From NCBI GenBank assembly GCA_977017645.1, contig OZ360246.1:10416001-10480000 (forward strand): a DNA stretch of 64,000 bases, in the 5' to 3' direction. This DNA is from Torpedo marmorata (lineage: Eukaryota). The notes under the pieces are model-generated. The model saw nothing but the letters and a program-made list of their open reading frames with translations. It had not been told where the DNA came from and searched no databases. Each line of letters opens with the position of its first letter. Positions within the stretch are counted from its first letter, which is position 1. A program made the position numbers and the translations under genes. Below, piece by piece: positions 6,852-63,489 of the stretch.

Positions 6852-8825
6852 TGCCGTTACATTCAAATCCTCTGTCTACATCATTAATATATATTGTGAA
6901 TAGCTGTACCGTGAGGTACCTATCAGTAACTGCCTGCCAATTTAAAAATGATCCACTTACTGTGTGGTGACTGCAGTTACAAAGGATAAAAGAAAATTAA
7001 TTGTAATTCTTGGATGCAGTGTTCATTCATAAGATCTGGGCATCACTAACATGCCCATCGTTAAATGCCCTAAGGAAAGTGGAGCTGCCTTCTTGAACTA
7101 CTTTAAGCATTTAAGAAGTGTCTAGATGAGCACGTAAATCGCCTGGACATAGGAGGCTGCTGGCCAAGTGCTGGACTAATATGGATGGATTCCCACTGGT
7201 CAGCCTGAACATGGTGGGCCGAATGGCCTGTTTCCATGCTATATAACTTTGACTGCTTCGCTCTCCTTCAGTCCTTCGGGTGCTAGTGCTCCCGATGCAG
7301 TGTCGGAGAGGGTTCCAGGATTCGGATAACATTGAGGCAACTTGCAGAGAAAATGGAGAAGCTGACCTCCTAAGCTCCCTGTCCCTATGAGTGAGTGAGG
7401 TCATTGGTTTGGAGGGTGCCGGCATGTACTCACCTCCCAACGTGGAAGGGAACTGGAAAAAGTTTCGCCCACAGAAATTCCTTACAGTGAGAGGGAATGG
7501 GGAGAGCGACACTTTGTTGGGATTTGATCCTTCATGCAGTGAGACATCACACTAGGCATGCCCTGACCACCTGGTGCTTCAGGTTCATTACTTCTGCTCA
7601 GGCTGGGAGAGCTCTGCACCAAAAATGGCCAAAGCATATACTGAGGACCTCTCCCCTCCCACCCCACCACCTCACCACCCTCAATAAGAACCCCCAGCCT
7701 CCAACTAACCTCTGATTTATTTCCAAAAATTATCCCTCCCTGTCTTTTTTACTCTTCATATTAGTTGCAGTTGACAACCAGATATGCAAAGCAGTCTCAA
7801 TTATTGAGTTTATTTATGGTTTACAGAACCACAGTGTTAAATGAAAGATGCCTCTTAGTAACTGGAGAGAGTTGACTTGCAACTCGAGTTACAAACCCTC
7901 CAGCTTCTCAGAGTTTGTCTGTGGGTTGCGGGAGGCAGGGGTTACAAATCCTCTGTTTCAAGCACCTCAAAGATCCTCCCTGTTTTTAACAGCACTACAG
8001 GCCAGATTAGATGTTTTCTTAGAACTCTTTATTTCCATATTTAAATCCTAAAACCTTTCACTAAATGCAATTATTGTCTTTTGCTTTCTTTCAATGACAA
8101 TATTAATTTTGCATAACCAGTAATCCCTGCTCGGCAGTAATACATTTGGCATTTTTATTTAAAAAAACAATTTTGTCTCCACTCCCTGTGTCCCCTGCTA
8201 ATCTGGTTTTCTCAACAAAGACTCAAAACAAGGGGAAATTGCTGCATCATTCATAAACTGTCATATGCGGAACTTGTAGTTTGAAAAATAATGTAAAAAC
8301 AGGAAATTAATGTTTATGGGTGTTTCTGGGAAACTGGTTGGTAAAGTGCAGGGATTGCAACTGACAGCTTTTATCAAATCCATGGTTCTTTGGAGTGTTC
8401 CTGTGTATCCAGGACCAAAGAGTATCATCGGTAAATCTGATAACATGGATCTGGGATGCCTCTCTTGCTGCTGTTGGACAACGTTCAAATATAACCTGTT
8501 TTCTACACATCATTATTTGTATGAAGAAAGACATAACGACAGAAGCGTTTCTGTTCCTTATGTTGTTGCTTCAGAATAAAAGGCAAATCATGCTGTTGTC
8601 TATTTAAAATAAAAATGTTTTCATCCAGGAGAGGCGATTTTCACAGTAATGGTGCAAGTGCAGAAACTCGAAATGGGTGGGTTCAAATTGTGCCTTGTAA
8701 ATTGACTCATCTGTCACTGGACCAAACCACTCCAAGCTCCCTAGTTTCTGGAAAACCATTTCGGTCTCTGTATCAAAGGATGTATTCGGCCTAAAGAGAG
8801 TGCGGCAGATTCTAATCAGTTAGAC

Positions 8826-9325
8826 CAGTGGTTTTCAAACTTTTTCTTTCCACTCACATACCACCTTAAGTAATCCCTATGCCATAGGTGCTCTGTGATT
8901 AGTAAGGGATTACTTAAGGTGGTATGTGAGTGGGGAAAAAAAGGTTGCGAACCACTGCTCTAGACCCAATTGTTACTGAAATATTTTGCTTGAGAAAAAT
9001 TGTCATTGGCTCATTTCCTTTGGAGTTATGAAACCGTGCACATAACGAGTCAATTAGGTACGATTAAAACAGTGGTTTTCAAACTTTTTCTTTCCACTCA
9101 CATACCACCTTAAGTAATCCCTTACTAATCACAGAGCACCTATGGCATAGGTAAACACGAAAATCTGTAGACACCGTGGTTAGAGTAAAAAACACAAAAG
9201 CTGGAGAACTCAGCAGGTCAAACTGTTTGACCTGCTGAGTTCTCCAGCTTTTGTGTTTTTTACCTATGGCATAGGGATTACTTAAGGTGGTATGTGAGTG
9301 GAAAGAAAAAGTTTGAAAACCATTG
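8826..9325. mobile_element. hAT (Charlie-like) non-autonomous compound element: two inverted palindromic MITEs plus a spacer
   Basis: TIRs CAGTGGTTTTCAAAC; 8-bp TSD AGTTAGAC at 8818-8825 and 9326-9333. Contains a PLE fold-back at about 9152-9262 with duplicated acctatggcatagg. Confidence 0.9.
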
Positions 9326-13915: not shown

Positions 13916-14231
13916 GACCAATGCTTACTAACTGAGAGATTATAACGTTTGAGGACAATTTTGTGCTGTGGACCAACTTTAACCATATCCCTCTGTGCAG
14001 GAGTTTTGACAAGTGGCAAATGACATGCGAATGGTTCAACCCAGAAGTCAAAAAGACAGCTTTCAAACACCCTGCATCACCACATCTTCCATCCCACCTC
14101 CTCACTCGATACTTTAATTGGTGAACCATTTGCCAAGCAATTTTGAATGCAGTGAACACGGAACAATAAAATCCAATTCCGTTTCCTTAACAAGAAGCTT
14201 TTCTATGTAAAATAAAGTGAAATTTGCATAC

Positions 14232-14303
14232 CTGGCAATGTACTTCTGATAAATATTTACATCATCGGGCAGAGCACCTGGCTTGTCGGAGGACAATCCA
14301 TTC
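14232..14303 (-). CDS. CASZ1: CASZ1 72-nt coding exon ([24 protein letters not shown]), just before the first Castor zinc finger
   Basis: Acceptor actag|G (phase 2, fits the previous exon) and donor GCCAG|gtatgc. Peptide matches the recalled human [23 protein letters not shown] with one extra residue. Confidence 0.93.
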
Positions 14304-15162
14304 CTAGTTTTTGTGAAGACAAAGTAAATAGAGATTAAATTTGAATTAGTTTCACATTTGAAAATAAATATATAACCTGCCAGAATATATCTGAGAGTTC
14401 TGGGTTATTTCATGCCCTGTCCTCCTGCCTCACAGTCAGTGACAGTTTCTGGATGTTTTAGTGTCCAAGTATTGAAACTTCACATTAATTATAGATTCGC
14501 ATCAGGAAGATGATGAGAAAAAATGACATCAGATTTTAACCCTTTGATAACTCTCCTTCATCAAGTTATAACCAATTTTACAGGTCGACTATTGAGCTGG
14601 AATTATGCATGTGTGTACATAAGTGTAGTCCTTCGAAGACCTATCAAAGCAGAGCTAGTACATCTCTGTACATCCTTGCTAGTATTTTGTACACCTTCAT
14701 CTTGTACGTCATTGGTACTTATGCATTTTGTACTCCTCCAGTACATATTTATACTGTCTGTATATATGTATCTTGTTAATCTTTTGTGTATCTCTAGTAT
14801 ATAAGCATGACTGCACATATCTTATATATCTGATTTCTATCTCTGTTACAGCTGTTGTGAATATATATTTCTAGTACATCCCTACTCGAAAATTGTGCAT
14901 TTAATATACATGCATCATGTTTGGTACATATACATATGTAGTTCATCTCTGCTAGTACCTTCAGATGAATCATACTTATTGCAGGTGCATCGTTAATGTA
15001 TTAACATCTTTAATCCATCTCTGCTAACATATATGTACATAGGTTTGGGTGTACCTATAAGTAGTCCCTTTCCCTACCCATCAAGCGAGGTATAAAGTAA
15101 TTGACCCTCGCCTCTGTGTCATGTGTACCTGTTGGATGTTTGTTTCGATCAGTGAGTTGTTT

Positions 15163-19499: not shown

Positions 19500-20340
19500 A
19501 AACACGGAAGTCTGCTGTGACTGTAGTCAAAACACAGAAATGCTGGAGGAACTCATCGGGTCTAGCAGCGTCCATAGGAGGTAAAGATATATTATCGAGG
19601 TTTAGGGCTTGAGCCCTTCCTCAAGGTATGAGTGAAAAAAATTAGGTATCGAATTAAACGCTGGGGAAAGAAAGGGGGAAGTATGGGAGGGGGAGGAGTC
19701 CAGACCAACAGGCAAAAGGTGTTAATTGGATATGATAAGCAGAAAGGTGAGAATTGAATTTGGCTCTGTGAAAGAGACAGAGGTAAAAGGGGGGAGAGAG
19801 AGAGAGAGAGAGCGCTAGAGGAAAGGTGACAGGGGGAAGAAGATGGGGGGGGGGTGTAACGGAAACCGGAGAAGTTGATGTTAATGGCATCCGGTTGGAG
19901 GGTGTCCAGACGGAAGATGAGGTGTTGTTCCTCCAATTTGCGGGTGGTCTCAGTCTGGCAGTGTATGAGACCATGGACAGACATGTCAGCAAGGAAATGA
20001 GACGGGGAATTGAAATGAGTGGCCACTGGGAGATTCACGCTATTGCCCACTGGGAGATCCACGCTATTGCCCACTGGGAGATCCACGATATTGCCCACTG
20101 GGAGATCCACGATATTGCCCACTGGGAGATCCACGATATTGCCCACTGGGAGATCCACGCTATTGCCCACTGGGAGATCCACGATATTGCCCACTGGGAG
20201 ATCCATGATATTGCCCACTGGGAGATCCACGCTATTGCCCACTGGGAGATCCACGATATTGCCCACTGGGAGATCCATGATATTGCCCACTGGGAGATCC
20301 ACGATATTGCCCACTGGGAGATCCACGCTATTGCCCACTG
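19500..20340 (-). mobile_element. 5'-truncated Penelope-like retroelement (GIY-YIG C-terminus plus terminal repeat)
   Basis: PVATHFNSPSHFLADMSVHGLIHCQTETTRKLEEQHLIFRLDTLQPDAININFS, then a pyrimidine-rich UTR and the hammerhead-like terminus. Confidence 0.88.
20023..20340. repeat. 24-bp minisatellite, 13 copies (ccactgggagatccacg[a/c]tattgc)
   Basis: Direct tandem units; translates as (HWEIHDIA)n or (PVGNIVDL)n. Confidence 0.97.
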
Positions 20341-21026
20341 AGAACCCAGTTAGCCAGAGAAACAGAAACAGATCCCTTTGCCCACACCCCAAATCCAACA
20401 ATAACCCCATTGTTTTAAAGCCTCCCCACTTTTTCATCAACTCCCCCGAGACTCTCCTGCTCACCGACACACCAGGGGCCAGCTAACCTACCATGGGGAT
20501 ATGGGAGAAAACCAGAGCACCCGGAGGAAACCCTGTTGTCATAGGGAGAGCGGACAGGTGAGGATTGAACCTGGGCCTCTGGTCCTTTGAGACAGTGTCT
20601 GTGCTAGCTATACCGATGTGCCACCCTGCACAAAGTACCCAGGACCCTCTAACTGGTACAACTGGCATGCGAGGGCGGGAGAGGGGCAAGTGTCTCTGCG
20701 TTGGGGTGTGCAGCACCATGAGATTGTGACTTTACTCCAAGTCCAAGACACTAAGGCTCGTTATTCCTGCTGTGCAGTGAAGACACACAGCCTGAACCAG
20801 GTCAAACACCAATCATAAAGGAGCATGTGATACAGCAGTGGGAGAACATTTTGGCCAGAAAGGCCTCAGTAGATGCTTCACACTTTAAGGTGCATAAACC
20901 ATATTTTATGCTTTTCCAATGAAGCAAAAAGTCTCCCTTGTTTATTCAAAGTATAAAATGCAATAATAATTATTTTACATTGAACCTAACTCCATAGTTA
21001 GCAATGTAATTGCTTGAGAAATTATA

Positions 21027-22400: not shown

Positions 22401-22857
22401 ACGAGGTCAGGGCGACGTGGAAATGGAAACATTCTTCTACTCCCAGCTTTTTAGCCTATTTATTTTCCATGCCGACATTAATGGAATAATCAAAAGAACC
22501 GTTGAGATATGCAGCGAGCAAAGCTGCACCTGAGCAAATGGGGAGTGCAGCGGGATCAACCTAACTCTATGTGCCTGTGCGGAAAGGTTAAGATCATTAT
22601 TAATGTAATCAAAGCACAGCCTAAAATAAAATGGACTCTGTGCTTTGAGATGAAAACCAATTTCCAACATAATAGGTTCATTCATTTTGAATACAATATG
22701 ATTGAAATTATGTGGCACAGTGACACAGACACACAATAATGTTCTACACATCATTAGTGCACACCTTTGTTTACTGTCCTTGCTGTGGATCGCACAGGTT
22801 CCTCTGACTCTGTGATACAGGGAGCCGTGTTTGGATTCCCTGGTCCAGGATGACGGG

Positions 22858-23119
22858 AGTAAAACACGAAAGTCTGCAGACACCGTGATTGAAGTAAAAA
22901 CACAAAGCTGGAGAATCCCAGCAGGTCAAACAGTGAACTTTATAGAGCAAAGATAAAGATACATAACCAACATTTCGGGCTTGAGCCCTTCATCAAGGTA
23001 TGAGCAAAATGTAGGCAGGCGCCCGAAATGTAGGCAGGCGCCCGAAATGTAGGCAGGCGCCCGAAATGTTGGCTTTGTATCTTTGCTGTAAAAAGTACAC
23101 TGTTTGACCTGCTGAGTTT
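22858..23119. mobile_element. Fold-back PLE terminus with a 3x19-bp tandem at the turn
   Basis: Minus arm 22858-23005, then (aaatgtaggcaggcgcccg)x3, then a plus arm from cccgaaatgttgg; the plus arm resumes after the CR1 insertion at about 23778. Confidence 0.8.
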
Positions 23120-24019: not shown

Positions 24020-25335
24020 CAGTAAAATCCCCATTATCCGGCACTCAATCAACCATAAACTCAAACAACCAGCAAAAAAAAAAATGAGGAAGTAAATAAA
24101 TCAAATGAATTTAAAAATAAATATGAATAAATAAAGTTTTAAATATAAGTTTAAATAAAAGTTTAAAATTGTAAAAGTAAATGTTCTCCGAAGCAACACA
24201 CAACCCCTTGGGAGTAAATATTCAGCCAGCGGAGCTCCCGATCATGCTCCGCCCGCAGCAGCTGTTTGAATAAAGTTTTCAATAAAGTTGTGTTTAAATT
24301 AAATGGCGTCACCCAGGATGAAGAGCCAGCCGATGTCGCTCACCACTGGGGCGACTCTTCCAAAGTATCTGCCTATCCCTGCCTGGTAAGGGTCTTTGTC
24401 TTTATTAATATGTCATTAAGTATATTAGTAAGGCTTTATCTGTAAACTTGAGGTAAGGAAGGGAGTTAATTATGATGGCGGCACGGTTAGCGTAGCGGCT
24501 AGCACAACGCTGTTGCAGCGCTCGTGAATGGGGTTTGAATTTAAAGGAAGGTACGCCGAGGGCCTGACCGGGACACATGCGTGGAGGTGAGTCTGGTTAC
24601 GCCGAGGGCCTGACCGGGACACATGCGTGGAGGTGAGTTGCGTTGCGCCGAGGGCCTGACCGGGACACTTGCGTGGAGGTGAGCCGGGTTGCGCCGAGGG
24701 CCTGACCGGGACACTTGCGTGGAGGTGAGTTGCGTTGCGCTGAGGGCCTGACCGGGACACTTGCGTGGAGGTGAGCCGGGTTGCACCGAGGGCCTGACCG
24801 GGACGCTTGCGTGGAGGTGAGTCTGGTTATGCCGAGGGCCTGACCGGGACACATGCGTGGAGGTGAGCCGGGTTACGCCGAGGGCCTGACCGGGACACAT
24901 GCGTGGAGGTGATCCGGATTGCACCGAGGGCCTGACCGGGACGCTTGCGTGGAGGTGAGTCGGGTTGTCAACGCGAGGGGAGGGGGGTTAATTATAATAG
25001 CGGCGGGCGGGGTTAGAGTAGCTGTTAGCGCAACGGTGTTACAGCACCAGTGACCGGAGTTTGAATTTAAATTCTCCAGTGACCAGAGTTTGATTTTAAA
25101 TTCTGTAAGTTACAGGAATTACCTGATTAAAGTGAACTTTATATAATTAAAGACTACAATACTGATTTTTTTTCAAATTACTTTACATTTTGCACTGTTT
25201 TTTGTCTTTTAAACGGTATATTCTTAATGCAGGTGTCTTAGTTAGGAATTGGAAGAGTTAGCCTCAGTCAACCGGAAAATTCGCATATCCAACATCCATG
25301 ATCCCCGTAGGTGCCAGATAATGGGGATTTTAATG
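24020..25335. mobile_element. Tigger/pogo-like non-autonomous DNA transposon carrying SINE heads and a minisatellite
   Basis: TA|cagtaaaatccccattatccggcac ... gtgccagataatggggattttaatg|TA (25-bp TIR with 2 mismatches, TA TSD). Confidence 0.78.
24554..24967. repeat. 46-bp CpG-rich minisatellite, 9 copies
   Basis: Unit cgccgagggcctgaccgggacacatgcgtggaggtgagtctggtta recurs at 24554, 24600, 24646 ... 24922. Confidence 0.97.
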
Positions 25336-26989: not shown

Positions 26990-27788
26990 TTGACGGTGGA
27001 GACGGTTCCGGTTGTGATGGAGTCAGTCCGGGAGAAGCTGGACTTCAGCAGGTCTGGACCCCCAATGCCAGCTGAGGCAACTAAATCAGAGGCAGGCCCC
27101 GGGACGCAGGAGGTGCCAGAGAGGGGAGCGGCAGCTGCGCTGGTCGGGGCTTTCACCACGGCCAGCTTCTGGATGTTCTTGACGTCGTATTTGGAGGGGC
27201 GTCCAACCTTGCCGGTCTTGAAGGCGATGGCGCCGCCCATGTCCGGATCTCCCTCCCCGGGCCTGAAGAGGTGCAAGTACTTGACGTTCTCCAGGTCATA
27301 CTTGGAGGGCCTCTTGTAGGTGTTGCCGTTCTGGGGCCGGAAGCTCTCTCCCGTCTTCAGCTTCTGGATGAAGTAGTCGTACTTCGACGCCCGAGGGGCC
27401 AGGCCTTGGGTCTGGGCCAGTAGGCCGGGGGCAGGCTTGGCGTCGCGGCGGAGGGGAGCCTCTGTACCGCTCGGCAGAAGAGCCTCCTTTTCCTTCTGGG
27501 CCCGGGGACCTGGCTCCTCAGCTTTGGCGGAGGGAAGCGGCCGGGGCAGCTGCTCCCCCGCCTTGAGTTTCCGAATGCACTCCTCGTACTTGGAGCTGCG
27601 GATCCTCCTCGCCAGCGCATCCTCGCCCAGAGAGGCCCCGGGGTAGGTCTCTGAGGTAGTGGCGTTCAACTTGTCAAAGCTGATCTTCTTCGCCAGCTCG
27701 TCCTTGACGTTCTGGTCATTGTAGCCGAACATTCCCAGGAATTCATTCATCGTCGATGCTGCATAGTCATGGAGCGTTGAGATTTCCC
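26990..27788 (-). CDS. CASZ1: CASZ1 internal coding exon ([23 protein letters not shown]...[11 protein letters not shown])
   Basis: Acceptor ctacag|GG at 27788 (phase 1, fits the previous exon) and donor GTCAA|gtaagg at 26990 (phase 2). Peptide motifs [48 protein letters not shown] and [13 protein letters not shown] match CASZ1. Confidence 0.96.
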
Positions 27789-29387
27789 CTGTAGATGGTG
27801 GGACAGGAAGGGGAAAGACACCGAAGAGTTAAACATTTCAGGAACATTCTGCACAGCTCTTAAGTTTTACGACTGCTAAATTAATTTGTAAAAAGTAATT
27901 AATACAGGGGCAAAATAAAGGGAGTTCATCAATGTCAGGAAAATCAATTTCACTAAATGTTCTAGTCAATGGCTTCTCAGTACATTAAACAAAGTTTTCA
28001 TAAAGGTTTTTGACGCACAGCTCCACTTAATATGTACAAAGTCATCTCTGCTGTTTGGTGTCTCGCCTTTATTGACTAATTTGTTTTATAAGAGCACATT
28101 GTCAGAGATGATGGTGGGTGAAGGGGCTTTCCGTTCTTTATTTTTCTTAGAACTCCTACTCTGACTAATAATGCAATGGAATCGTTTGGTTTGCAGTTTT
28201 GTTTTGCGAGTACATATGGCTATTTGGGTTTTTTTTTCAGGAAGGAGCCTTTTATTCGGTAAGGGGCGCACCGTCCTGACTTGAACTACGTCGCCAGCCC
28301 TTCGATGGCGCTGGTCTGAATCCCGGTGCTCTCTGCCCTGCAGGCGTTGTGGGTGTCCAATCACCAACAGTGGTTCAAGGAAGAGGCTTCCCTACTCAAG
28401 GGCACTTGGCAATGGGTCATGACCGCCTTACTGTTCTGAACAACGAACTGGACGACCACTGGGCTGGCTGGGTAAGTGAGAGGCTTTCTTGGGACGTGTG
28501 TTGTGTTTCGCCTGCCATCGCTACATGACAAGCGGCCTTCCCGCTCCCTGACGCTGACTCCCCCGTTCAACATGGCTGCTCCATGATCGGATCGGCCTTT
28601 CCCACTCTCTCTCAACAACTTTGGTACAATAAATGCATCGGTCGCTTTTTAAAATGAACAAATAGCCCAGCGTCATTTGCCATTCGTAAAGGAGTGGGCT
28701 GGAAGTTCCATCATCGTTAATGAACGGACCCTCACTCCTGAAAGACGTGGCTCCGTTTGTTTAGGCCCCCTCAATCTACACTCGCCAACCAGTTGAAGGT
28801 ATCGAGCTCTCTCTACCTCAACAGCACCCCTCAAAGCCTGGTGCATTTACAGGTTCTCAGCGGTGGACCTTGGATGCCCGGCTAGGGTCACAAAACTGCT
28901 GGGACACATTCCACCAATGTCATCACTGCCCCATCTACACCCCTCTCGTTTCTACAAGAACAAGTGTTCAGCAACGTGAAAGAAAGTACACACCGCATCT
29001 CTTTAAAGCACCATTGAATTTTCTTCCCGATAACCCTGGAAACTCATCCATAATCCATAGGAATTCCTGGACAATCTCAGAGCCACGAGCACAACCGGGC
29101 TTCGTTGGCAGATCAAAGATTTTGCTCATTGGTGAAGAGGTTACAATTTTATTGTACTTTATCGGGGAAGTTTCTCTCCGTATGTGTAACAGGAAGCGTT
29201 ATGAGCCATTCAAGGAATGAGGTGTCATACTGTTGGTTGGACTGAGTATTGGTTTTCACTCATAGTTTGCTTCTGAGACAAAGGGCTTGGGTTCAAGTCC
29301 CTTTCGAGGGAGTGCAGCACTGCCAAAGGCACCGATTTGCAGTTGAGACCTCACTTAACACCATTGGAAAGAGGTCACTGTGGTACT

Positions 29388-32237: not shown

Positions 32238-32267
32238 GTGATCATATGAGGGGCAAGGGTAACTCAC

Positions 32268-32781
32268 CTGAAGAGGCAGTGCTGGGTTGCCTCGTGCTGG
32301 CCTCACTGGAAGAATTATAACCTTCTTCTTTCCGCCCCACCTCCTCGGAATCTCGATCCTCCACGCAGCTGCCGTCGAGAGATCCCTGAGCTCCATCGTT
32401 GTCCTCCTCCTCCTCCTCCTCCTCCTCCTCCTCACTGCACCCTTTGGGCTGAAGCATGTACACCCCTTCCGAGGACAGGAAGCCCCCGGGCCCGGCCTTC
32501 GCTTGGAAGTCCCCGTGTTCGTCCGTGTACTCCCCGTTCACCCACTTTTCTATGGCTTCCCGCCTCTTCTTGTCCTCCTCCAACCTCTGGAAGCGGCGCA
32601 GGCCGCCGTGGCTCTCGGCCTCGCCCTCCTGCTCGCTGGGGTGCAGCCCGTCGCCGTGGCAACTCTCTTGGAGTTTATGGTCTGGCTCGGCCTGCTCTGC
32701 CGCACAGTCGTAGACAACCTGCCGACTTAGCTTGGCACAGATAGCGTTCAGTTTCAGACCACCCTTCCGCTTGGCAGCCAT
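32268..32781 (-). CDS. CASZ1: CASZ1 coding exon from MAAKRKGGLKLNAICAKLSRQVV; the exon probably begins at an acceptor at 32825
   Basis: Translation matches the vertebrate CASZ1 N-terminus as I recall it (KRKGGLKLNAICAKLSRQVV, IEKWVNGEY, EGVYMxQPxGCS). Donor TCAG|gtgagt at 32268/32267, phase 1. Candidate acceptor after a pyrimidine tract, ...cccttggaag|TG, at 32825. Confidence 0.95.
32404..32433 (-). repeat. Pure (GAG)10 coding microsatellite (poly-Glu) in a CASZ1 exon
   Basis: (CTC)10 on the plus strand, in frame as EEEEEEEEEE. Confidence 0.95.
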
Positions 32782-33284
32782 CTTGGAATTTCCTGAGGTG
32801 GCCTCAATGCATGAATTTCATTCCACTTCCAAGGGACAGGAGAGGCCGCAGGAAAAGATTGCAAACAGAGAAAACAAAAACACAATGTAAATATCACCGT
32901 GCAATTTTTAACACAGCAGGCAGACTGTAGAAAACCACAAGAACTGCAGTTGCTAGAATCTGGAGCAAACAACAAGAAACTGGAGGGACTCAGAGGGTCA
33001 GGCAGCATCCGCGGAGAGAAGTGGTCAGTCAACGTTTCGGGTCGGGACCCTTTCTCAAGACTAACGTGGGAAGCGGAGGTAGCAAGTATGAAACTAAAGG
33101 AGGGGGGAAAGGCTGGGGGAGTTAGGGGAGAAGACCACGGGGGGGGGGAGGGGTGGAGAGGAACGTTTGAGGGAAGAGGGACAGCAGGAGCAGGTAGAGG
33201 AAAGATGGAAACAGCAGAACTCGATCGAAGTGGGCTTACCTAAATTTGGAAAATTCGATGTTCATGCTGTTAGGTTTTAGGTGT

Positions 33285-33510
33285 ACACAAAAGCGTTGGA
33301 GAAACTCAGCAGGTCCCGCAGCGTCCATAGAAGGCAAAGATATATAACCGACGTTTCGGGCCTCAGCCCTTTGTTAAGGTAGGGCTCAGCAGGCCTGAAA
33401 CGTTTGTTATATTTCTTTGCCTCCTACGGATGCTGCGTGACCTGCTGAGTTCCTCCAGCTCTTTTGTGTATTAACTACAATCACAGCATCTGCAGGCGTT
33501 CTCGTTTCAC
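33285..33510. mobile_element. Fold-back PLE terminus within a larger degraded PLE (about 32930-33710)
   Basis: Inverted arms around agcccttgttaaggtagggct; GIY-YIG remnant CRLGDHFPKHL on the minus strand at about 33680. Confidence 0.75.
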
Positions 33511-33892
33511 TGGGTTTTAAGTTACCGGGTGGAATAGAGTATGCTGTTTCCACAAGTTTACGTTTGGCCTCACCTTGTCAATGGACGAGGTGGGAGACAG
33601 ACAGGTCCGTGTGTGAGTGCCTAAGGGAGCCAAAATGGCTGGCAATCTGGAGTTCGTCTTGGACCCAAGGTTAGAGCACAGGTGCTTGGGGAAGTGGTCA
33701 CCCAGTCTGCAATTGTATTCGTTTCTGTCAAAGTGACAGGTGAAGTTAATACGTAGAATCAACAGAGAGATCCTGTATCCCCAACAGATGGTTTAAGGAC
33801 CAAGAGACCCAGATATAAAGTCATGTGAAAAAGCTACAGGGGGACATGTGAGGATGAACTTATTGATGTAGCAAAGGTGCTTATGATATAGT

Positions 33893-34165
33893 CAAAACAC
33901 AATGCTGGAGAAACTCAGCAGGTCAAACAGTGTACTTTATGTAGGAAAGATAAAGATACATAACCAACGTTTCGGGCTTGAGCCCTTCATTAAGGTATGA
34001 CAAAATGTAGGCAGGTGCCCGAACAACTCTTTGTCGTTAAATATCTTTAAATAAACAAAATATCTTTTTCTTTGCTACATAAAGTACACAGTTCAACCTG
34101 CTGATTTTCTCCAGCATTGTGTTTTTACTTCAATCACGGTGTCTGCAGACTTTCGTGTTTTACTT
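33893..34165. mobile_element. Fold-back PLE terminus
   Basis: aaacacaatgctggagaaactcagcagg...cctgctgattttctccagcattgtgttt inverted arms. Confidence 0.8.
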
Positions 34166-34855
34166 CTATGTATGATACGGAACTTACCACCAATAAATGT
34201 GTAAACGTCAATTAGGACATATAAAAGAAATTTTTTAGAGAGCTATATTTGCAGAGACATGGGGAAGAAATAGGGGTTGGGATTGTTCTGCAAAGAGCAA
34301 GTATAGGCTTGATGAGCTGAATAGTCTCCTTTCCAATGCAGAAATGGAAACTGTAAAGCATCATATTTCATTACTGTGGCATCCACACTATAATGGTGCG
34401 GTTTGACAAATGAAGTAAATCACACAAAGTGTTCCAAAGACGTACGGGGTTTGTTGGTTAATTGGTCACATGAGTTTATTTGGGTGGTGTGGGCTGGAAG
34501 GGCCTGCGGCCTTAACTCTTAAACAATGTAATATCTAAACCCAGCATCCCCAACTTGCATTGGAGGGATGTGGGCCGGGCGAAACGGAGCATGTCTGAGT
34601 CCGATGGCAGAGGTCCATGGTGACATTCTGCAGCTGCTGCACACCAGACACGCCATTAGGAATGGCTGCAGGTGCTCAGAAGATCAGCCGCAACTGTGGA
34701 GACAGAAGCAGGGTTTGTACTTCTGGCTGATGCCCTCAGACCTGGAATCAGCGATGAAATTGAGAAAGGTGGGGAAGGGAGGAACCAGCTCGTGCGTGGG
34801 TGTGAGGCAGCAGGGAAAGAAATGGTGAAAACGGCAAGAATGCCGTAATTTAGCC

Positions 34856-35723: not shown

Positions 35724-37014
35724 CTAGGTCAGATAGATCACATTCAACCTTCACTGACGGGATATCATGGGTGTTCTGAATGCTTTGTGCAAGAACATTG
35801 CAGTGTTTGTGAAGCTCGGACAGAGGGTACTCCTGCCGGGAAGAGCTACCCTCTTGTACCTCTCCTCCTTGGAAAATTCTTGGGATCAAGTCCGACTAAG
35901 GCCCAGTCCACTAGAGACACACGAGATACTGCGGATGATGGAATCTGGAACATTAACAACCTCCTGGAGGGTCGAGCAGCGTCCATGGGAGAAAAAGAGC
36001 GGTTGGCGTTTCCGTAAGACCATAAGAGACAGGAGCAGAATTAGGCCATTTGGCCCATCGAGCCTGCTCTGCCATTTGAATCATGGCTGATGTTTCAGGT
36101 TGGAGCCCTTCATCAAGAAATGCAGATGCTGGTATCTTTGAGTGAACAAAGGGAAACCGAAGGACTCAACTGTCAGTCGTTTCGGGTTGGGACCCTCTAT
36201 CGAGTAAGGGTTCTGACCCGGAAGACTGACTGATCATTTCTCTCCATGGACGCTGCCTGGCTGCCTGAGTCCCCCCCCAGTTTCACCTTGTTCTCACAAT
36301 ACATCCCAAGAACTCCATCATCGATTAGATGAGGGCCATGACCTGAAATGTTGACCACTCTTTTTCTCCCATTGATGCTGTTCAACTCGCTGAGTTCCTC
36401 CAGCAGATTGCTTTTTACCCCCCAGTCTAGTTATGTGGGTCCTGAAGTGGCTGTTGAAGTCTGTGTGGTTCCCACAGACTCTGCCACAGGAGGGGCAGGG
36501 GATACTTGATAGGGGAGATAGATAGGTACTTTGGGAGGGGGTGTATTCTACCCAGTCCTTGGCCTCTGCTTACTCCCATGGTACAGAGTCGAGGCATTCG
36601 CTACCTTCCCTGATACTCTGCTTTGAACACACGGGATGGGGAATCCTGTGAGTGAGTGAGGGAGGTGCATGGTTTGGAGGAGACTTGAGAATGTTCGGCA
36701 CTGCCCTCCTGGAGATCTGTGACAGAGCTCAATGTGCCTGATCATCCAGGGATCTGGGAGTAATCCAGAGCAAGTTCAACAAGAAGGTCTACAGACGCTG
36801 GGCTCAAGTGCAATACACAAAGGTGCTGGAGAAACTCAGCAGGTCACGCAGCATCCATAGGAAGGGTAACTAACGTTTTGGGCCCCTTGTCAAGTACATG
36901 ACCCAGAAAACCTTATATTTACACATCTTCGACATGCCTGAAATGTTGATTACCTTGACATCCTATGTATGATGCATGCTGTGCTGAGTTTCTCCAGCAC
37001 GTTTGTACGTTATA

Positions 37015-39932: not shown

Positions 39933-40321
39933 TTGTTTCCTCTGTTTGTATGCTGTAACATTGCATAGGAAGGGTCTTCCACCTGGCACATTAACTCTGT
40001 TTCTCTTTCTGTTGAGTGTCGAGTATCCCACCATTTTCTAGTTCTATTTCATATTGGAAGTAAGATTTTTCCAACTTCTGGTCGATATGGACCCCAGTAC
40101 ACATTAATTGCCTTAGGTTGGCATTAGTTGTCTTCCAGAAGAAAGAAGGATATTTTGTGTGTGTGCTGGTGATGCAGACTGTGCAGAAATGAAGGAGAAA
40201 TATAATTGGCTTAAGGTGCAATGTTAGGCAGAGAACATTACGTCTGAACTACGATGGGTTCACCACAGCAATGTTTACGTCTTGCACTCGGAGGTCAATG
40301 GAACCAAATTTTGGATTTAAA

Positions 40322-40580
40322 GCAAAAACACAATTCTGGACAAACTCATCAGGACAAACAGTGTACTTTATATGGCAAAGATAAAGATATATAACCAACG
40401 TTTCGGGCTTGAGCCCTTCATCAAGGTATGAGCAATTTGCTCATACCCTGATGAAGGGCTCAAGCCCGAAACGTTGGTTATGTATCTTTACTGTAATAAA
40501 GTACACTGTTTGTCCTGCTGAGTTTCTCCAGCATTGTGTTTTTACTTCAATCACAGTGTCTGCAGACTTTCATATTTTAC
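40322..40580. mobile_element. Fold-back (head-to-head) PLE terminus with a hammerhead-like motif in each arm
   Basis: Arms about 40323-40435 and 40437-40548 are near-perfect reverse complements around gagcaa-t-ttgctc. Confidence 0.88.
40442..40482 (+). ncRNA. Putative minimal hammerhead ribozyme of the PLE terminus
   Basis: acc-CTGATGA-a-GGGCT(ca)AGCCC-GAAA-cg-TT-ggt: core boxes, stem II, palindromic ACGT mini stem III and a short stem I. PLE-encoded minimal hammerheads are established. Confidence 0.65.
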
Positions 40581-40977
40581 TTTGTGTTTCATGCACACAC
40601 TCAAAGCTTCATGCACACACCAGCATATTGCACATTTGCAATGGACAGAGGGTTTCTGCTTCAGATACTTGTCACGAGATGGCCTTCTTTTGCCATCCCT
40701 CACAGAGAAACTGACAGCTTGTGCGATGAACACATTGCACGCAGGGTCCGAAAGATTTCAGCTCTGCACTAAAACCATTAAAAACCCAGCATGCGTTGTG
40801 AGGTCATACACACAGGTTCACTCTCGATATAGAAAGTGATCTGTCTGTGTGTTTCGAGTAAGTTGACATGAGAATTCTTAATGGAAGCCGTTTCCTGCTT
40901 GCATCAAGTGTATGTTTTAGCTGGTCGCTGTAAGAGTTGTAAGAATATATCCCGCCACAGAGGTTGTGGGTCTACCA

Positions 40978-41362
40978 GTAAAACACGAAAGTCTGCAGAC
41001 ACCGTGGTTGAAGTAAAAACACAAAGCTGGAGAAACTCAGCAGGTCAAGCAGTGTCCTTTATATAGCAAAGATAAAGATATGTAACCAACGTTTCGGGCT
41101 TGAGCCCTTCATCAAGGTATGGAAAAATGTCGACAGGCGTCTGAACAAAATGGTGGGGGGAGGAGCATGATCCCAAAGGCAGGAGGTAATAGGTGGAGAA
41201 GGGAGGGAGGGCACAGCAGCAAGCAGGGGGAGGAGGGATGGCTCTGTGAATAGAGAGGGAAGGGGGTGGAGAGCTGAGGGAAAGAAGACAAAGGGAAAAG
41301 GGAAGGGAGGGAGAATGGAGAGTAGCAGAAACTGGAGAAGTCGATGTTAATGCCATCCGGTT
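40978..41362 (-). mobile_element. Penelope-like element 3' end
   Basis: End of the GIY-YIG ORF (ccggatggcattaacatcgacttctcc), UTR and terminus. Confidence 0.85.
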
Positions 41363-42096
41363 GGTCTACAAGGGAGGAGTTCCTTCATATTTGTACCTTA
41401 TCTTGAAATATTCCTGACTTTGTTTTCAAATCGGGGCCTATTATATAAACAATTGATTCGGTAAAGTTGAATTACGTTTCAGAAGGTCAGAGGTAAGAGG
41501 ACAGTCATTTGGAAAAACCATCTGCAGAAAAAAAATCTTTAAGGAACTGGAAGACATAAATTTTAAGGTCTTTTCACAGAAGCCTTAGAAGGAAAATTGA
41601 GGTCATTTGGGTGTAACGGCAAAGGTCATTTCTGTTCACAGCGCAAAGTATTTTAACATCTAACTAGTGATTTCCTTTGTAGGGAAATGGCTTCAATAAG
41701 CCTTTCTTTTCATTGTGGTCTGGTTCCTGACTATTTGTATACATTCATAAACACTCACTTAATAGACATTCTGTCGGAAATTGGAAATCCGAGTATATTT
41801 GGTGGATAAAACTTGGTTGCTGAGGTTATGTGACTTTTATTTTAGGAGCCTTGATGGTCATTTATCCAGGCTTTGCTCCACAGTACACTGTCAGCCATTT
41901 TACTATTCCTTATTCACATTGTCCATTGGAAGCAAGGAAAACTGAGGGTAAAAATGTGTTGTAACAGTCGATTCAAAAGTTATCCAGAAATCCAGTCAGC
42001 TTCCACCAATACCGATTGGATTCAAAGAGCATTGTTCTGATTTTACAAGCAAAATGTTGTTGGTCACCAAATCACTCAAATACACCTGGACATTCA

Positions 42097-42335
42097 GGGC
42101 GGCATAGTTAGCGTAACGCTGTTACAGCGCCAGCGACCCGGGTTTGAATCCGGCGCTGCCTGTAAGGAGTTTGTACGTTCTCCCTGTGTCTGCGTGGGGT
42201 TCCTCCGGGTGCTCCGGTTTCCTCCCACCCTTCAAAACATAAGGGGATCAATTGGGTGTAATTGGGCGGCAAGGGCTCATGGGCCGAAAGGACCTGTTAC
42301 CGTGCTGTATGTCTAAATTTAAATTTAAATTTAGA
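42097..42335 (+). mobile_element. tRNA-derived SINE
   Basis: Family homology; (aaattt)n tail. Confidence 0.9.
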
Positions 42336-42619
42336 AATAATTTAGGGCATGGTTTGAGTTACACTGTGTGACGGCGAGGATCAGGAGTGATGAGGTTGAT
42401 GTTGAGGGGAGTTAATTGCAAACTTTGATTTGAAAGAGAGTAATGGAAGGAGTCAGAGGAAGGAAGAACGATGTGTCCAGGAAGGACTCGTGACCCGATT
42501 AATGACAATGAAAGGCATGTGAAATTTGCAACACTGGATCTCCTCAAGAGGTGCCCCTGAGGTCATCAGCTGTCGAGAGCATGATGGTGCAGGCTGGTTA
42601 CATGGGGTTAAGTGGTACC

Positions 42620-43063
42620 AGGGGAAATGGTGTACAGAGTTCCAGAAGGCTTTTGATAAGACCCCACACAGGCAGTTGACCAGCAAGGTTGGAGCACATA
42701 TATTCTGGAGTAATATAAAGGTATGGATTGAAAACTGGTTGTCACATCGAAAGAAGAAAGTGGCGTCAAGGGTTGGTATTTCTCAGGTTGGCAGTGAGAG
42801 GTACAGAATTCGATTATATACAGGGAGAAGGACGTAACGAGGCTTTAAAGGGTTATAGAGAAGCTATCAGAGTAAGAACGTGGCGGATGAAAAAAATAAT
42901 GTGGAAAAATGTGGTGCACAAAATAGAAATGGTGAGAGATGGGGAAAAAGTGATGTTGAAAAGGGACCTGGGTGCCCTGTACATATCTCACTGAAAACTA
43001 CCACGCTGGTTCAGCCTGTGATTAAGAAGGCCAATTCTATGTTGGGCTTTACACTGATTGGAG
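42620..43063 (+). mobile_element. Degraded CR1 RT fragment, continuing at about 44960-45040 after a PLE insertion
   Basis: EFQKAFDKTPHRQLTSKV...WIENWLSHRK (DFxKAFD motif region); RDLGAL; IKKANSMLGF. Confidence 0.7.
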
Positions 43064-44955
43064 TAAAACATGAAAGTCATCCGAGATGTCCTCCTTGAAA
43101 AAACGTGGCTTTCCCTCTACCACCCTCAACTCAGCGGTTACCCGCATCTCCTCCATCACCCGCACATCTTACCCCCACTGCCCCCAGATGCAACAAAAAC
43201 AGGATTCCCCTTGTCATCACCTACCACTCCACCAGCCTCCGCATCCAACATACTGCATTATCCTTTGCAATTTCCGTCATCTACAACATTCAAGATTCAA
43301 GATTCAATTTACTGTCATAGTAATAAGACAGTGTCATATTCCATGAAATTTCTTTTTGCCTGCTGCAAGGCAGACAGATTCGCCACCGGCAGAAATTGCC
43401 TAAGCGCCTCAAACATTCCTTACAGTCAGAGAAAGAGAAGCAAAAGAGAGTCCCCCCAGAGTCACCGAGTGTCCGTAGATTCGCCTCCAGCGCTTCCGCA
43501 GCCTCCGCAGCCACACAGAGTCCGGTCCAAACCATGGCAACCCGAGCTCCAGATCCGAACCTCCGACACGGTCAGGTCGCCCTCGGCACCCCCTCGCATC
43601 CCGGTTCCGATACCTGGTACTCCTCCAGCCAGTTCGAGCTAACCTCCAGCAGTCTCCAGCAGCCCACAGCCTCTGCGGGTTTCTCGCCTCGAGTCACCAG
43701 CAGCCCGCCGCATGCACTGGTCCTTCAGCCTCAGAGCCCCTCACTGGTCCGCCGCCGTGGTCACCGTCCCGTGGGTCGTCTCCTCCGCTTCTCCTTCTCA
43801 GACGGGGGGTGATCTTCCTGTCCTCTGGTGCCCTGCTCCAGTCCTACGCTTCCCCGGAATCTGCAGCCCCTCGTGGCTGCTGCCGGTTAAAAGGCGCTGC
43901 CATCTTGGGCGCAGACCCCGCGGTCGCGGGATCTTAAATAAAACCACTGTTGGCTCCCTCAACGGGCCGTTCAAAGCCTGTGCGGAACCGACGGCAGTCG
44001 ACTGGGCAGTTGGACCCCGCGGGAGCGCTGCATCTCCGCTCCCACGCTCCCCGCGGGTCCGCACCAGCGGCTCCGGCAGCACCGCCATCTTCTATCAGCC
44101 AGCAGAGCGCCCCATACACGATGCCACCACCAGACACATCTTCCCCTTTGCTCCCTTCTCCACCTTCCCACCTCCCTCCGTGACTCCCTCGTGTCCACTC
44201 ATGCCTTCCTACTAATCGCCCCCTTGGCACCTTCCTCTGTGACCGCAGGAAGTGCCACACTTGTGCCCACACCTCCTCCCTCACCACCATTTGGAGCCCC
44301 AAACAGTCCTTCCAAGGAAAGCAACACTTCACGTGTATCCGCGGGAGTCATCTACTGCATCCGGTGCTCCTGTCGTGGCCGTCTCTACATCGGAAAGACT
44401 GGACGCAGACTGGGAGATGGCTTTGCTGAGCACCATCGCTCTGCCCGCACCAATGACAGGGATCTCCCAGTGGCCAATCATTTCAATTCTGCGCCCCACT
44501 CTCGCGCTGACATAGCTGTCCATGACCTCATGCACTGCCAAACCTAGTCCACCCGTAAATTGGAGGAGCAGCACCTAATATTCCATCTTGGCACACTCCA
44601 GCCGGATGGCATTAACATTAACTTCTCCGGTTTCTGCTAGACAACTTCCTGGTCTCCCTCTCTTCCCCATCCCTCTGTCTCCTTTCCTCCAGCTCTCCAC
44701 CCCCTTCCCTCTCCATTCACAGAGCCATCCCCTCTCCCCGCTTACTGTGCCTATTACCTCCTGCCTGTGGGCCTGTGCTCCTCCCCCTGCCCCCCCCCCA
44801 CCCCCCCCCTCCACCATTTTGTTCGGGTGACTGCCTATATTTTGTTCATACCCTGATGAAGGGCTCAAGCTGGAAACGTTAGTTATGTATCTTTATCTTT
44901 GCTATATAAAGGACACTGTTTGACTTCCTGCATTTCTCCAGCATTATGTTTTTAC
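43064..44955 (+). mobile_element. Penelope-like retroelement 3' half (RT thumb, Cys-rich linker, GIY-YIG endonuclease, terminus), interrupted by a nested element
   Basis: KKRGFPSTTLNSAVTRISS; CDRRKCHTC; GVIYCIRCSCRGRLYIGKTGRRLGDGFAEH...PVANHFNS. Flanked by a near-identical 17-bp TSD tttac(a/t)ctgattggagt. Confidence 0.9.
43269..44112 (-). mobile_element. GC-rich non-autonomous retroelement with an aagatggcg 5' motif and a (TCTTGAA)n tail
   Basis: Splits the PLE sequence. Homologous to 63540-64000 (+, 5' part) and 13698-13915 (-, 3' part). No recognisable RT ORF. Confidence 0.7.
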
Positions 44956-45953
44956 TTTACTCTGATTGGAGTTGAGCACACGAGTAAGGATGTCTTATTG
45001 CAATTATATGGATCCTAGATGTGACCATGGATGGACTACAGTTGATAGTTTCCTTCTCCTTGCCAAAACTCCACCAGGGCTGGGTGACACCACGTTCACA
45101 AGATCATCACACCCCTGGACATAGGCATGAGTCATTATCATGTTTCGAGGAGAAGCCTTTGGCTGCTCCTGGGTTCCATTGACTCCCCCAGAGCGTGTGC
45201 AGCAGACCCAACCATCCAAACCAACCCCACTCCCCACTGCAGACAAGGGGGAGTTAAGTCATGCCAGCATCAGCCTGGGATTGTCTTCTTACATGGAGCC
45301 TCTTCCGAACATGGGAGGGTACCTTCAATAGGTCCACACAAACAGCCAATGAGATTGGGCCAGTGTGATCAGCTGACAGGATGTTGCTCAGGAACTTTGG
45401 TGCTTCAGAAAGGAGGTGGGTTTTGGAATGAACACAGATATCACTGTGTGTGCTCTCTCTCCCTTCAGTGCTGCAGTACCCACAGATGTCAACGGTACTC
45501 ATTTGACTTAATTTCTTATTGAAAATGACTTTGTTTTACTTTCTCACTTTTGCAATGACAGAAATAGATCCACCATTCAGTCAGAGGGACTTTTCCAAGT
45601 TCTCAGAAAGTTGTTCTTTGCTCTGGCAGTGAGTATTGCATCAGAATCACTGAGTTAAACACCATCCCCTCCCCCCCCAAATATATACCCTTCCCACCCT
45701 CATCTCAACCTTCTAGTGGACAGGAGCCTTAGGCAGCACTGCAATAGCTCTCTTAACCACTGATCTATAAGAGTGTGGGTTCAGGTTCCACCCCAGAGAC
45801 AAATGTGAGATGACAATGACAACTTCAATGTCATAAATAGATAATGACCTTCATCATCGTTCTTGCCTCGATGTTGGAAAGGACCAAGGCTGACTTTTTT
45901 TTTTAACCTCAGTGCCACTTTCCTGCACAAATTCCAGATCACTAGATTCCATT

Positions 45954-51617: not shown

Positions 51618-53502
51618 ACTTGAAAGGACAGGCTAATGCACTCCTAATGCACCCCTGCCAGCAGATATCTCTGAACCCACATCACTGGACACAATTGCTA
51701 GATTAATTGGCCATGTACCACTCACTAGTGTGTCAGTGAGTGGTGTAAACTGGGAGGGGGGAGTTGATGAGAATGGGGGGGGGGAATAAAGTGGGATTAG
51801 TACATAGTGTAGGCAGGGGAGCTTGATCAGCAGCGATACGGTGAGCAGAAGAGCCTGTTTCCATGCTCTATGACATTGCTGCCTGTGGAGCTGCCACATT
51901 TCCCACTTTATAACATGTTCAATAAGTACTTGGAACGTCCTGAGGTAGTGACAGGTACTACTGAAATGCAGGCCCTGCTTTTTGTTCTGCCTCATCTCTG
52001 AGGGGAGAAGGTAGCATCTGCATTTGCCTCCTTGCTTGGTGTTAATGCTGGCACCCTCTGCTCTCTATTGCGAAGGCTTAACTGATTCTCCTTCCACAGA
52101 CAACCCGACCGTCTTCAGCATTCCCTGATATTATTTCAAGTTTGCAGAATCTGCAGTTTTTAAAAAAAAGCTTTAATTTACTCTGGCCCACACTGGACAG
52201 ACACAAAGGGCAGGAAAACCTGGGCTGCACACTGCATCCACGCATGCACACTCTTCGCTGCAGCGAACATCTTAAAATAAGTGGCAGTTCCCATTGAAGA
52301 GCTCATCAAACCCCACAGGCGAGATGAATTTCCACAGGACCTCTTACTCTGAGTAGGTGATCAGGGGTACAACCCACCTCAAAAGAGATGCCGACCAAAA
52401 AATGGTCGCCGTTTCGAGCCGAAACATCCGCATCAGTACTGATGAAGACTTTCCACTCGAAACTTCGACCTTTTTCTCCCACTGATGCTACTCGGCCTGC
52501 TGAGTTCCTCCGGCAGATTGCGCTTAGCCTCAGGATTCCAGCATCTGCCGTCTCCTGCGTGTCTCTGCTACTCATACCAGGCAGTCAGCCTCAGTTACCT
52601 GCTGAATACCTGAATCGAATCCCGATCACACCACCCTCCTCCTCCAACTGACAGGGGAAAAAAAATAAATGTTTCAATAATTGAGGCATTCCAGACAGCA
52701 CATGTTTTCAGAGCTGAAACTCTCAGACTGCCAGACATCTGCCTTAAATAGGAAACCTTCTTTTAACACACCATCTGTGCTCCAGGCTGTGTGTACCTAA
52801 CGATTTGTACAAGGGGAAATTCATAAACTTTATTGATTAAACATTTTTTTTTGCTGTGGGGAGTTATTTTCTCTCCCAAACCACTCAGGAGAATTTTCTG
52901 AATGGGAAGCCTGCTGAGTGTTATCACAGTGACCATCTGTGAAAGAATCTTGCCTGAAATGGAATTCCGCACAGTTGGGGAAAAGAGAACTTTCGTGTGC
53001 GGGGAGGTGTGAGCGCGCTGGATGACGAGATTGTTGTGGCAAGCAACAGCAGTTGGAATAGCCAAGGTGGCTTTGGAGGGGGGACTGGCTGTCGGTGTTG
53101 TAACGATACACAGATGGCTGCATCGAAACTTGTCAAGTAGTACACTTACACTCTCTCTCCAGTAATAACATTCTCTTGTGTCAAGGATCTTCACACCGTC
53201 TGCACTTTAAACAGATGGTAAAGGTGCGGCAGAAGAATGAGAGGGGAGCCTAGGGGAGAATTGTGTCCCCGGAAGCTGGTGAGAGCTTGGAGATTGGTGT
53301 GGCTGCAGAAACAATCCCTGCATTTCACAGCGACTCGGACGAGCACTTGATATGCATCCCGCTGTGAGGTTTTGGACTGGGAGTTGGAAAGGTGGGTGGG
53401 ATTGATGTGAATAGTTCTCTCTTCGCTGGGATTGAGATGACGGACTGAATGGTCTCCCTTGAATATCCGTAATTGAGGGTCACGGGGTAGGCAGGGTTTC
53501 GT

Positions 53503-62897: not shown

Positions 62898-63117
62898 AAA
62901 CATTTCAGATCCTCTTCTCGACTCATGGGCTGGTTTATTTTCCAGAAAATATCAACTATCCTTGGTGCTCGTTGGCCCTGGTTAGCAGAATGTCAATAAG
63001 CCAGCTGATTGAAGAGACGTTTGTTTCTCGAGGAACCCGCATCCCTCATTGCTCAAGGAATTAACCCCCTCACTGCCACTGTCCAGCTCTGCCCTTGGTG
63101 AAGTGGTTGAACTAAAG

Positions 63118-63489
63118 CAGTGGTTTTCAATTTTGTTCTTCCCACTCACATACCACCTTAAGTAATCCCTATGCCATAAGTGCTCTGTGATTAGTAAGGG
63201 ATTACTTAAGGTGGTATGTGAGTGGGAAAAAAGGTTGAGAACCACTGCTCTCGACCCAATTGTTACTGAAATATTTTGCTTGAGAAAAATTGTCATGGCC
63301 CATTTCCTTTGGAGTTATGAAACCGTGCACATAACGAGTCAATTAGGTACGATTAAAACAGTGGTTTTCAAACTTTTTCTTTCCACTCACATACCACCTT
63401 AAGTAATCCCTTACTAATCACAGAGCACCTATGGCATAGGGATTACTTAAATGGAATGTGAGTGGAATGAAAAAGTTTGAAAACCACTG
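63118..63489. mobile_element. Second copy of the hAT compound MITE
   Basis: Same structure and spacer; 8-bp TSD AACTAAAG at 63110-63117 and 63490-63497. Confidence 0.92.

Follow-up and report, generated by a model that had tools for sequence, protein, structure and literature searches.

The 40-kb mark of the 64-kb stretch of DNA analysed here (the window) carries a short fold-back sequence with a hammerhead ribozyme motif in each arm, close to coding exons of CASZ1. How was such a structure made, and do its ribozyme motifs act on the gene around it? The sequence-only reading had placed the hairpin at 40322-40548, with a motif in each arm; this holds, and the full extent is 40317-40582. Its arms, 40317-40435 on the minus strand and 40437-40582 on the plus strand, are 89% identical, both contain the hammerhead motif, and they flank a lone unpaired T at 40436 (Table 1). 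The fold energy of the hairpin is -173 kcal/mol compared to a mean of -63 for shuffled sequences (z -23), and 0 of 100 shuffles were equally stable. Two rare variants are common to both arms, and the seam between them is a near-perfect palindrome. The sole exact match of the 26-nt seam in the 6.2-Gb genome is the seam itself. A target-site duplication was looked for at the hairpin and none was found.

When the minus-strand hairpin is folded, the predicted pairing probability of hammerhead stem II is 0.0. The motif is thus predicted to be masked by the fold-back, in agreement with the earlier suggestion that fold-back pairing could inactivate it. An Rfam scan of the 64-kb window gave no hammerhead family matches and only sub-threshold hairpin matches; with matches of that kind alone, a microRNA reading of the hairpin was rejected.

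Table 1 Coordinates of the hairpin, related insertions and CASZ1 exons in the window.
Feature	Position	Strand	Remarks
Short hairpin unit without hammerhead	9153..9263	.	14-bp target-site duplication
CASZ1 coding exon	14225..14305	-	Protein mapping
Hairpin unit	22838..23119	.	19-nt piece three times at seam; right arm interrupted by another repeat
CASZ1 coding exon	26992..27807	-	Protein mapping
CASZ1 first coding exon found	32263..32781	-	Protein mapping
Hairpin unit, older subfamily	33268..33519	.	Both motifs damaged
Hairpin unit	33890..34169	.	U3 motif with G5 lost; 7-bp candidate target-site duplication
Tail-less PLE terminal-repeat arm	40317..40435	-	Sense to CASZ1; begins 11 nt before hammerhead position 3
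Minimal hammerhead motif, U3 (40424) opposite G8 (family state)	40390..40430	-	Predicted cut after 40397
Fold-back seam, single unpaired base	40436..40436	.	26-nt seam sequence unique in genome
Second terminal-repeat arm	40437..40545	+	Antisense to CASZ1
Minimal hammerhead motif, C3 (40448) private to (+) arm	40442..40482	+	Predicted cut after 40475
One-sided tail, ~37 nt	40546..40582	+	Ends with second GTGTTTT(T)ACT-like end motif
Separate 5'-truncated copy with tail	40977..41360	-	U3 motif (41115); last ORF codons
Decayed copy: GIY-YIG remnant, 3' region, tail-less end	44344..44957	+	C3 at 44853; stem II damaged

The parent element was sought through an endonuclease (GIY-YIG) remnant that lies in the window at 44344-44600. 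A search of the 6.2-Gb genome with this remnant gave 159,381 candidates, 150 of which were scored. Long frames are present in young copies: locus L178 has a 980-aa frame with a reverse transcriptase (RT) match (E 2e-6, below the Pfam cut-off), and L179 a 532-aa frame, 64% identical to the window remnant, with RT and GIY-YIG matches that are both below the Pfam cut-offs. DKG and YIDD motifs are visible in the parent frames, whose homologues carry RVT_1 and often GIY-YIG. A Pfam search of 46 long frames of the window itself returned nothing relevant. A CxxxxCxxC linker, described as a feature of Neptune and Nematis elements (PMC8557442), precedes the endonuclease in L160, L176, L177, L178 and L179 and so points to one of these two groups. 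The family is an endonuclease-bearing (EN+) Penelope-like retrotransposon (PLE), likely of the Neptune clade. In near-full copies the terminal repeat continues across the tail and into the ORF, and the apparent start of the long ORF is ~45 nt beyond the tail. Among 30 loci that match the 5' part of the ORF, seven have a hammerhead ~540 nt upstream in the same orientation, each with U at core position 3 (U3). The RT and GIY-YIG frames, together with the head-to-head arms, support the PLE origin and the inverted termini that had been proposed. Across the genome, exact motifs of the family occur about once per 80 kb. At G000:C80, ~6.0-6.3 Mb, seven of the 150 scored matches to the endonuclease lie together, and their near-identical scores suggest local duplication. 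The region 40977-44957 was also considered as one large inverted element and rejected, as 41360-43060 is unrelated sequence.

Short hairpins of this kind were then compared in two surveys, both of loci selected by pattern and not at random. Arm ends were collected from 150 loci and the window, and the 3' ends of the 231 arms form two groups ~35-40 nt apart. The second survey, of 286 loci and the window, yielded 48 distinct short head-to-head units. In 44 of these one arm has a tail and the other has none, and the seam is individual in 46. Target-site duplications of 7-17 bp were present in 22/31 units, as judged by inspection with no shuffled control. In most units the arms are of unequal extent (e.g. 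-119/-611 or +78/-9, counted from position 3), and at the seam bases are added or overlap. Only 1/156 arms starts at the predicted hammerhead cut site, and 3 fall in the bin from +20 to +29, with ends uncertain by a few nucleotides. The 5' ends do not accumulate strongly at the hammerhead edge, the excess among the less biased arms being mild (15/156 in the bin -10 to -1, compared to 3-11 in neighbouring bins).

Fifty-five pairs of tailed and tail-less arms were compared. The two arms differ by 9.0%, compared to 14.5% between shuffled partners (12.8% at the lowest in 1000 shuffles), and the pairs share 10 rare variants where 2.05 are expected, a count raised by a small number of old-subfamily pairs. 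Most rare variants occur in one arm only (110/120 and 116/126). The likeness above that of shuffled partners, combined with the mostly private variants, shows that the arms of a unit come from the same subfamily and one source and then aged separately. Gene conversion between the arms as the cause of their likeness is not supported, as most rare variants are private.

We consider it probable that the hairpin at 40317-40582 represents a dead PLE insertion, doubly truncated and from an abundant family, likely built on site from two short cDNAs joined head to head, with the hammerhead as a passenger that is predicted to be masked. The target would be nicked on both strands with a stagger of 7-17 bp, and the element's enzyme would prime two short cDNAs on the two cut strands, at two start sites that bracket the tail and with uncut RNA as the template. 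Reverse transcription would drop off early, and the cDNA ends would be joined head to head via microhomology or a few extra bases. The layout of an inverted PLE end with a one-sided tail, and a mechanism for it, have been published (PMC3846280, PMC8557442). For the Anolis element, cutting and extension of both strands have been reported, along with two start sites that delimit the tail, and insertion in vitro was unaffected by hammerhead mutations (PMC11167929). The start site was no different between the two strands in vitro in that report (PMC11167929), which leaves the strict one-tail rule unexplained.

The palindromic seam at 40436 and the lack of a duplication there also fit snap-back self-priming, in which the inverted arm would derive from one cDNA primed on itself or from an antisense template. 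Snap-back has been proposed for palindromic junctions (PMC3846280), the palindrome at 40436 is perfect or nearly so, and a shared source for the arms of one unit is what it would give. However, simple snap-back does not yield the unequal arms and the extra or overlapping seam bases of most units, and we regard it as an unlikely origin.

The sequence-only reading had raised the possibility that the short hairpins are a non-autonomous, retrozyme-like family copied as a unit by the PLE enzyme. One pair of loci resembles this: L262 and L263 (G000:C1, ~246.78 and 248.46 Mb, 1.7 Mb apart) have the seam, both ends and private variants in common, in a 191-nt cassette (L262:1424-1614, minus strand, and L263:1424-1613) that is 98% identical between sites with different flanks and separate target-site duplications. 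The cassette is a candidate for whole-unit recopying, and some units may be recopied whole now and then. L286 has the same seam without the private variants of L262/L263, so seams can recur independently. Against a copied family stand the individual turn-points of 46/48 units and the single occurrence of the 40436 seam genome-wide. Retrozymes are also defined by units that repeat head-to-tail, each with its hammerhead (bioRxiv 2026.07.22.740005), whereas the units here are head-to-head; short direct doubles were found only at a few loci, e.g. L023 and L025. We therefore judge a retrozyme-like family to be very unlikely, and construction on site remains our preferred reading.

Some further features of the insertions were observed. 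Short pieces are re-copied at 5' seams (window 23005-23065; L013, L014, L018, L087 and L253-L282): a 19-nt unit is present three times in the window, and 203 genome copies, most of them in unrelated flanks, have an 8-nt slip at the 5' edge of the hammerhead. Both look like template realignment by RT. The PLE hairpin at 9153-9263 sits at a near-palindromic site inside a copy of a second palindromic repeat family, which occupies 8816-8968, 9065-9300 and 63110-63473 of the window. Tandem arrays are present inside a PLE remnant (24 nt, 19948-20415) and inside a SINE-like repeat (46 nt, 24464-25013).

The motif itself recurs through the window, with 12 matches at up to 3 mismatches where 100 shuffles gave an expectation of 0. 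Sixteen places had been listed previously. Eleven of these fit a 28-nt core pattern with at most 4 mismatches, the copies at 18240 and 231 break off within the core, and 52440, 59525 and 62467 are members of older, divergent subfamilies. An additional copy, absent from that list, was found at 36091. Conservation of the core positions bears out the description of the motif as a minimal type I hammerhead with both core boxes, except for the Watson-Crick pair at positions 3-8, which is found only in the 40448 arm and in older subfamilies. Stem II had been drawn with 5 bp and a 2-nt loop; the stem is there, but 4 bp with a closing UCAA loop describe it better. Stem I is longer than first drawn (CAUACC/GGU-U-AUG). 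Across five subfamily groups, U4, G5, A6, G8, A9, G12, A13, A14, the pairs A15.1-U16.1 and G10.1-C11.1 and the palindrome 15.2-16.2 are invariant.

In 20 hand-picked, related copies, stem II is 92% paired with two-sided changes in 3/5 pairs, and stem I is 56% paired. The stem covariation score exceeded 500 shuffles and all slid controls, for a structure drawn from these same 20 copies. The motifs had been suggested to pair with each other through the ACGU palindrome; cofolding of two copies instead favours, by prediction, the swapping of stem II over an ACGU helix. At L023, L025, L271 and L272 the hammerhead segment is present twice in direct tandem, with a distance of tens of nucleotides, an arrangement that could permit dimer cleavage.

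The host gene was correctly named from sequence alone: the frame at 32245-32787 on the minus strand matches CASZ1 proteins, best at 93% to a named electric-ray protein. Three CASZ1 proteins mapped on the window and 400 kb of neighbouring DNA identified three coding exons in the window and 15 more below it, every one of them minus-strand. In the direction of the gene, the first coding exon found (32781-32263) is 7.5 kb downstream of the hairpin. It is preceded by a pyrimidine tract and an AG, which makes an intron upstream of it probable, and the hairpin is probably within a CASZ1 intron.

About ten sense motifs had been expected in the CASZ1 pre-mRNA. There are indeed 11 on the CASZ1 strand, none with an intact canonical core. 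Base by base, nine have U3, several of them with further damage, 18239 is truncated and 59523 is without A9. The copies that keep both boxes (40448, 44853, 52439 and 62468) are all antisense to CASZ1. Between the first and the last coding exon we found no strand bias of the arms (25/53 sense, p 0.78), nor a significant one among core-spanning arms (17/28 sense, p 0.34); the unbiased orientation gives no sign of selection. These counts bear on a further proposal, by which the sense motifs would pair through ACGU, cleave and affect the expression or splicing of CASZ1. At least 11 motifs on the right strand, and a published if weak dimer cleavage of minimal hammerheads (PMC4209133), speak in its favour. 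We nevertheless consider it extremely unlikely, given the lack of an intact canonical core in all 11, the unbiased arms, a motif density that is family-wide and the cofolding preference for stem II swapping. None of these observations suggests that the pre-mRNA is cleaved, and the hammerhead motif probably does nothing to CASZ1. The PLE family is present in contigs of five public runs, which give no ends, strand or position-3 frequency.

The state of core position 3 was followed through the genome. The sequence-only reading had named C3U changes as a possible cause of inactivation, and the counts reverse this: when any loop sequence is allowed, 76,618 of the 77,573 exact motifs have U3 and 955 have C3. 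U3 is the family norm, and U3 faces G8 in ~99% of exact motifs. An exact 32-mer is present 4,926 times with U at position 3 and 49 times with C, a C3 share of 0.98% (49/4,975). For a control T-to-C change at another site of the motif, 45 copies are changed and 4,840 unchanged, or 0.92% (45/4,885; p 0.76). The equal shares led us to reject a C3 sub-lineage among the young copies, and C3 in the 40448 arm and in other young-subfamily copies matches the background rate of change.

Clustering of 292 copies gave seven groups. In four groups of 3-9% divergence, U3 was found in 191/202 copies not selected on position 3, and in 110/118 copies of the young groups when pattern-selected copies were excluded; all 7 upstream motifs of near-full young copies carry U3 as well. 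The three groups of 12-20% divergence are mostly C3 (29/41 copies). Core and palindrome positions differ among three U3 groups in 0/14 cases compared to 21/77 other positions (p 0.034), and vary over five groups in 0/14 compared to 32/70 (p 0.0007); both tests assume independent sites and use a profile from the same family, and are suggestive. Positions 7 and 17, which are free positions of the hammerhead, vary among the subfamilies. Together, these data suggest that U3 took over from C3 in the younger subfamilies while the remaining core stayed constant. A short upstream frame starting at A6-U7-G8 was considered as the cause of core conservation and set aside, position 7 being A, G or C in other subfamilies.

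Two observations concern the C3 copies. About 12/30 of them (L001-L030) are truncated within ~6 nt upstream of position 3, compared to ~3/30 U3 copies (L031-L060), both counted by eye, an excess that may reflect RT errors just before drop-off. Older C3 subfamilies (L131, L146, L148, L163 and the window at 52430-52470) have a pyrimidine tract, often with CAG, just 5' of stem I that is absent in the young U3 groups; it resembles the intron end at helix I described for Drosophila virilis Penelope (PMC4209133).

Positions 3 and 8 form a core pair that is reported as C-G or U-A in nature (PMC3088659, PMC4209133), and a halophile hammerhead variant is described with a natural U3 and G8 plus a 2-nt insertion (PMC7151607). 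A literature search for the activity of U3-G8 hammerheads found no measurement, and a PLE hammerhead of this type may still be in print, e.g. in supplements. We infer that a U-G wobble at 3-8 lowers activity, and the U3-G8 motif likely cuts weakly or not at all. A tentative reading, to which we give somewhat less than even weight, is that a PLE lineage fixed U3-G8 and then gave rise to at least three more successful subfamilies and tens of thousands of copies with the other core bases unchanged. Selection would have kept the motif as a ribozyme that is deliberately slow and assisted by protein, or else as an RNA fold that does not cut, and the lineage would be a natural test of the need of PLEs for RNA cleavage.

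The hairpin itself adds little to what is known. Its layout and its hammerhead motif are already in print, and it is an ordinary case of a truncated inverted PLE insertion. Adineta Pen2/Pen2a and the elements of Craig et al. 2021 (PMC3846280, PMC8557442) are described with an adjacent inverted 5'-truncated copy, a 30-40 bp tail at one end, a target-site duplication of ~8-10 bp and solo terminal repeats. Here, in contrast, many units are 110-280 bp long, have no coding sequence and occur in very large numbers, and 40317-40582 has no duplication. These thousands of short units record the integration geometry of PLEs, with one tail per unit. Non-LTR retrozymes (PMC7229834, bioRxiv 2026.07.22.740005) are likewise non-coding, hammerhead-bearing and related to PLE terminal repeats, but form head-to-tail arrays, whereas nearly all units here are single head-to-head events.

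The Anolis Poseidon element PAc (Frangieh et al. 2024, PMC11167929) resembles the present family in the two reverse-transcription start sites that bracket the tail, in the hammerhead within the terminal repeat and in the lack, as far as that report describes, of any sign of cut RNA as template. PAc has C3-G8 and an ORF that starts inside the hammerhead, whereas here the pair is U3-G8 and the ORF apparently starts past the tail; PAc belongs to Poseidon, while the linker here points to Neptune or Nematis. PLE hammerheads have low activity in vitro and were dispensable for insertion in one reconstituted system, and the family-wide wobble core is the one point of interest of the present case and alone merits a bench test: a dominant lineage with the 3-8 wobble beside older C3 relatives in the same genome provides matched natural variants for cleavage and transposition assays. 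The minimal type I hammerheads of metazoan PLEs (Cervera and De la Pena 2014, PMC4209133) share with it the core boxes, the extra base between 9 and 10.1, G10.1-C11.1, the palindromic 15.2-16.2 and the location in the terminal repeat. Stem II here has 4-5 bp, in difference from those hammerheads, and U3 stands opposite G8 in ~99% of exact matches, whereas the main text of that paper names only a compensated U3-A8 variant.
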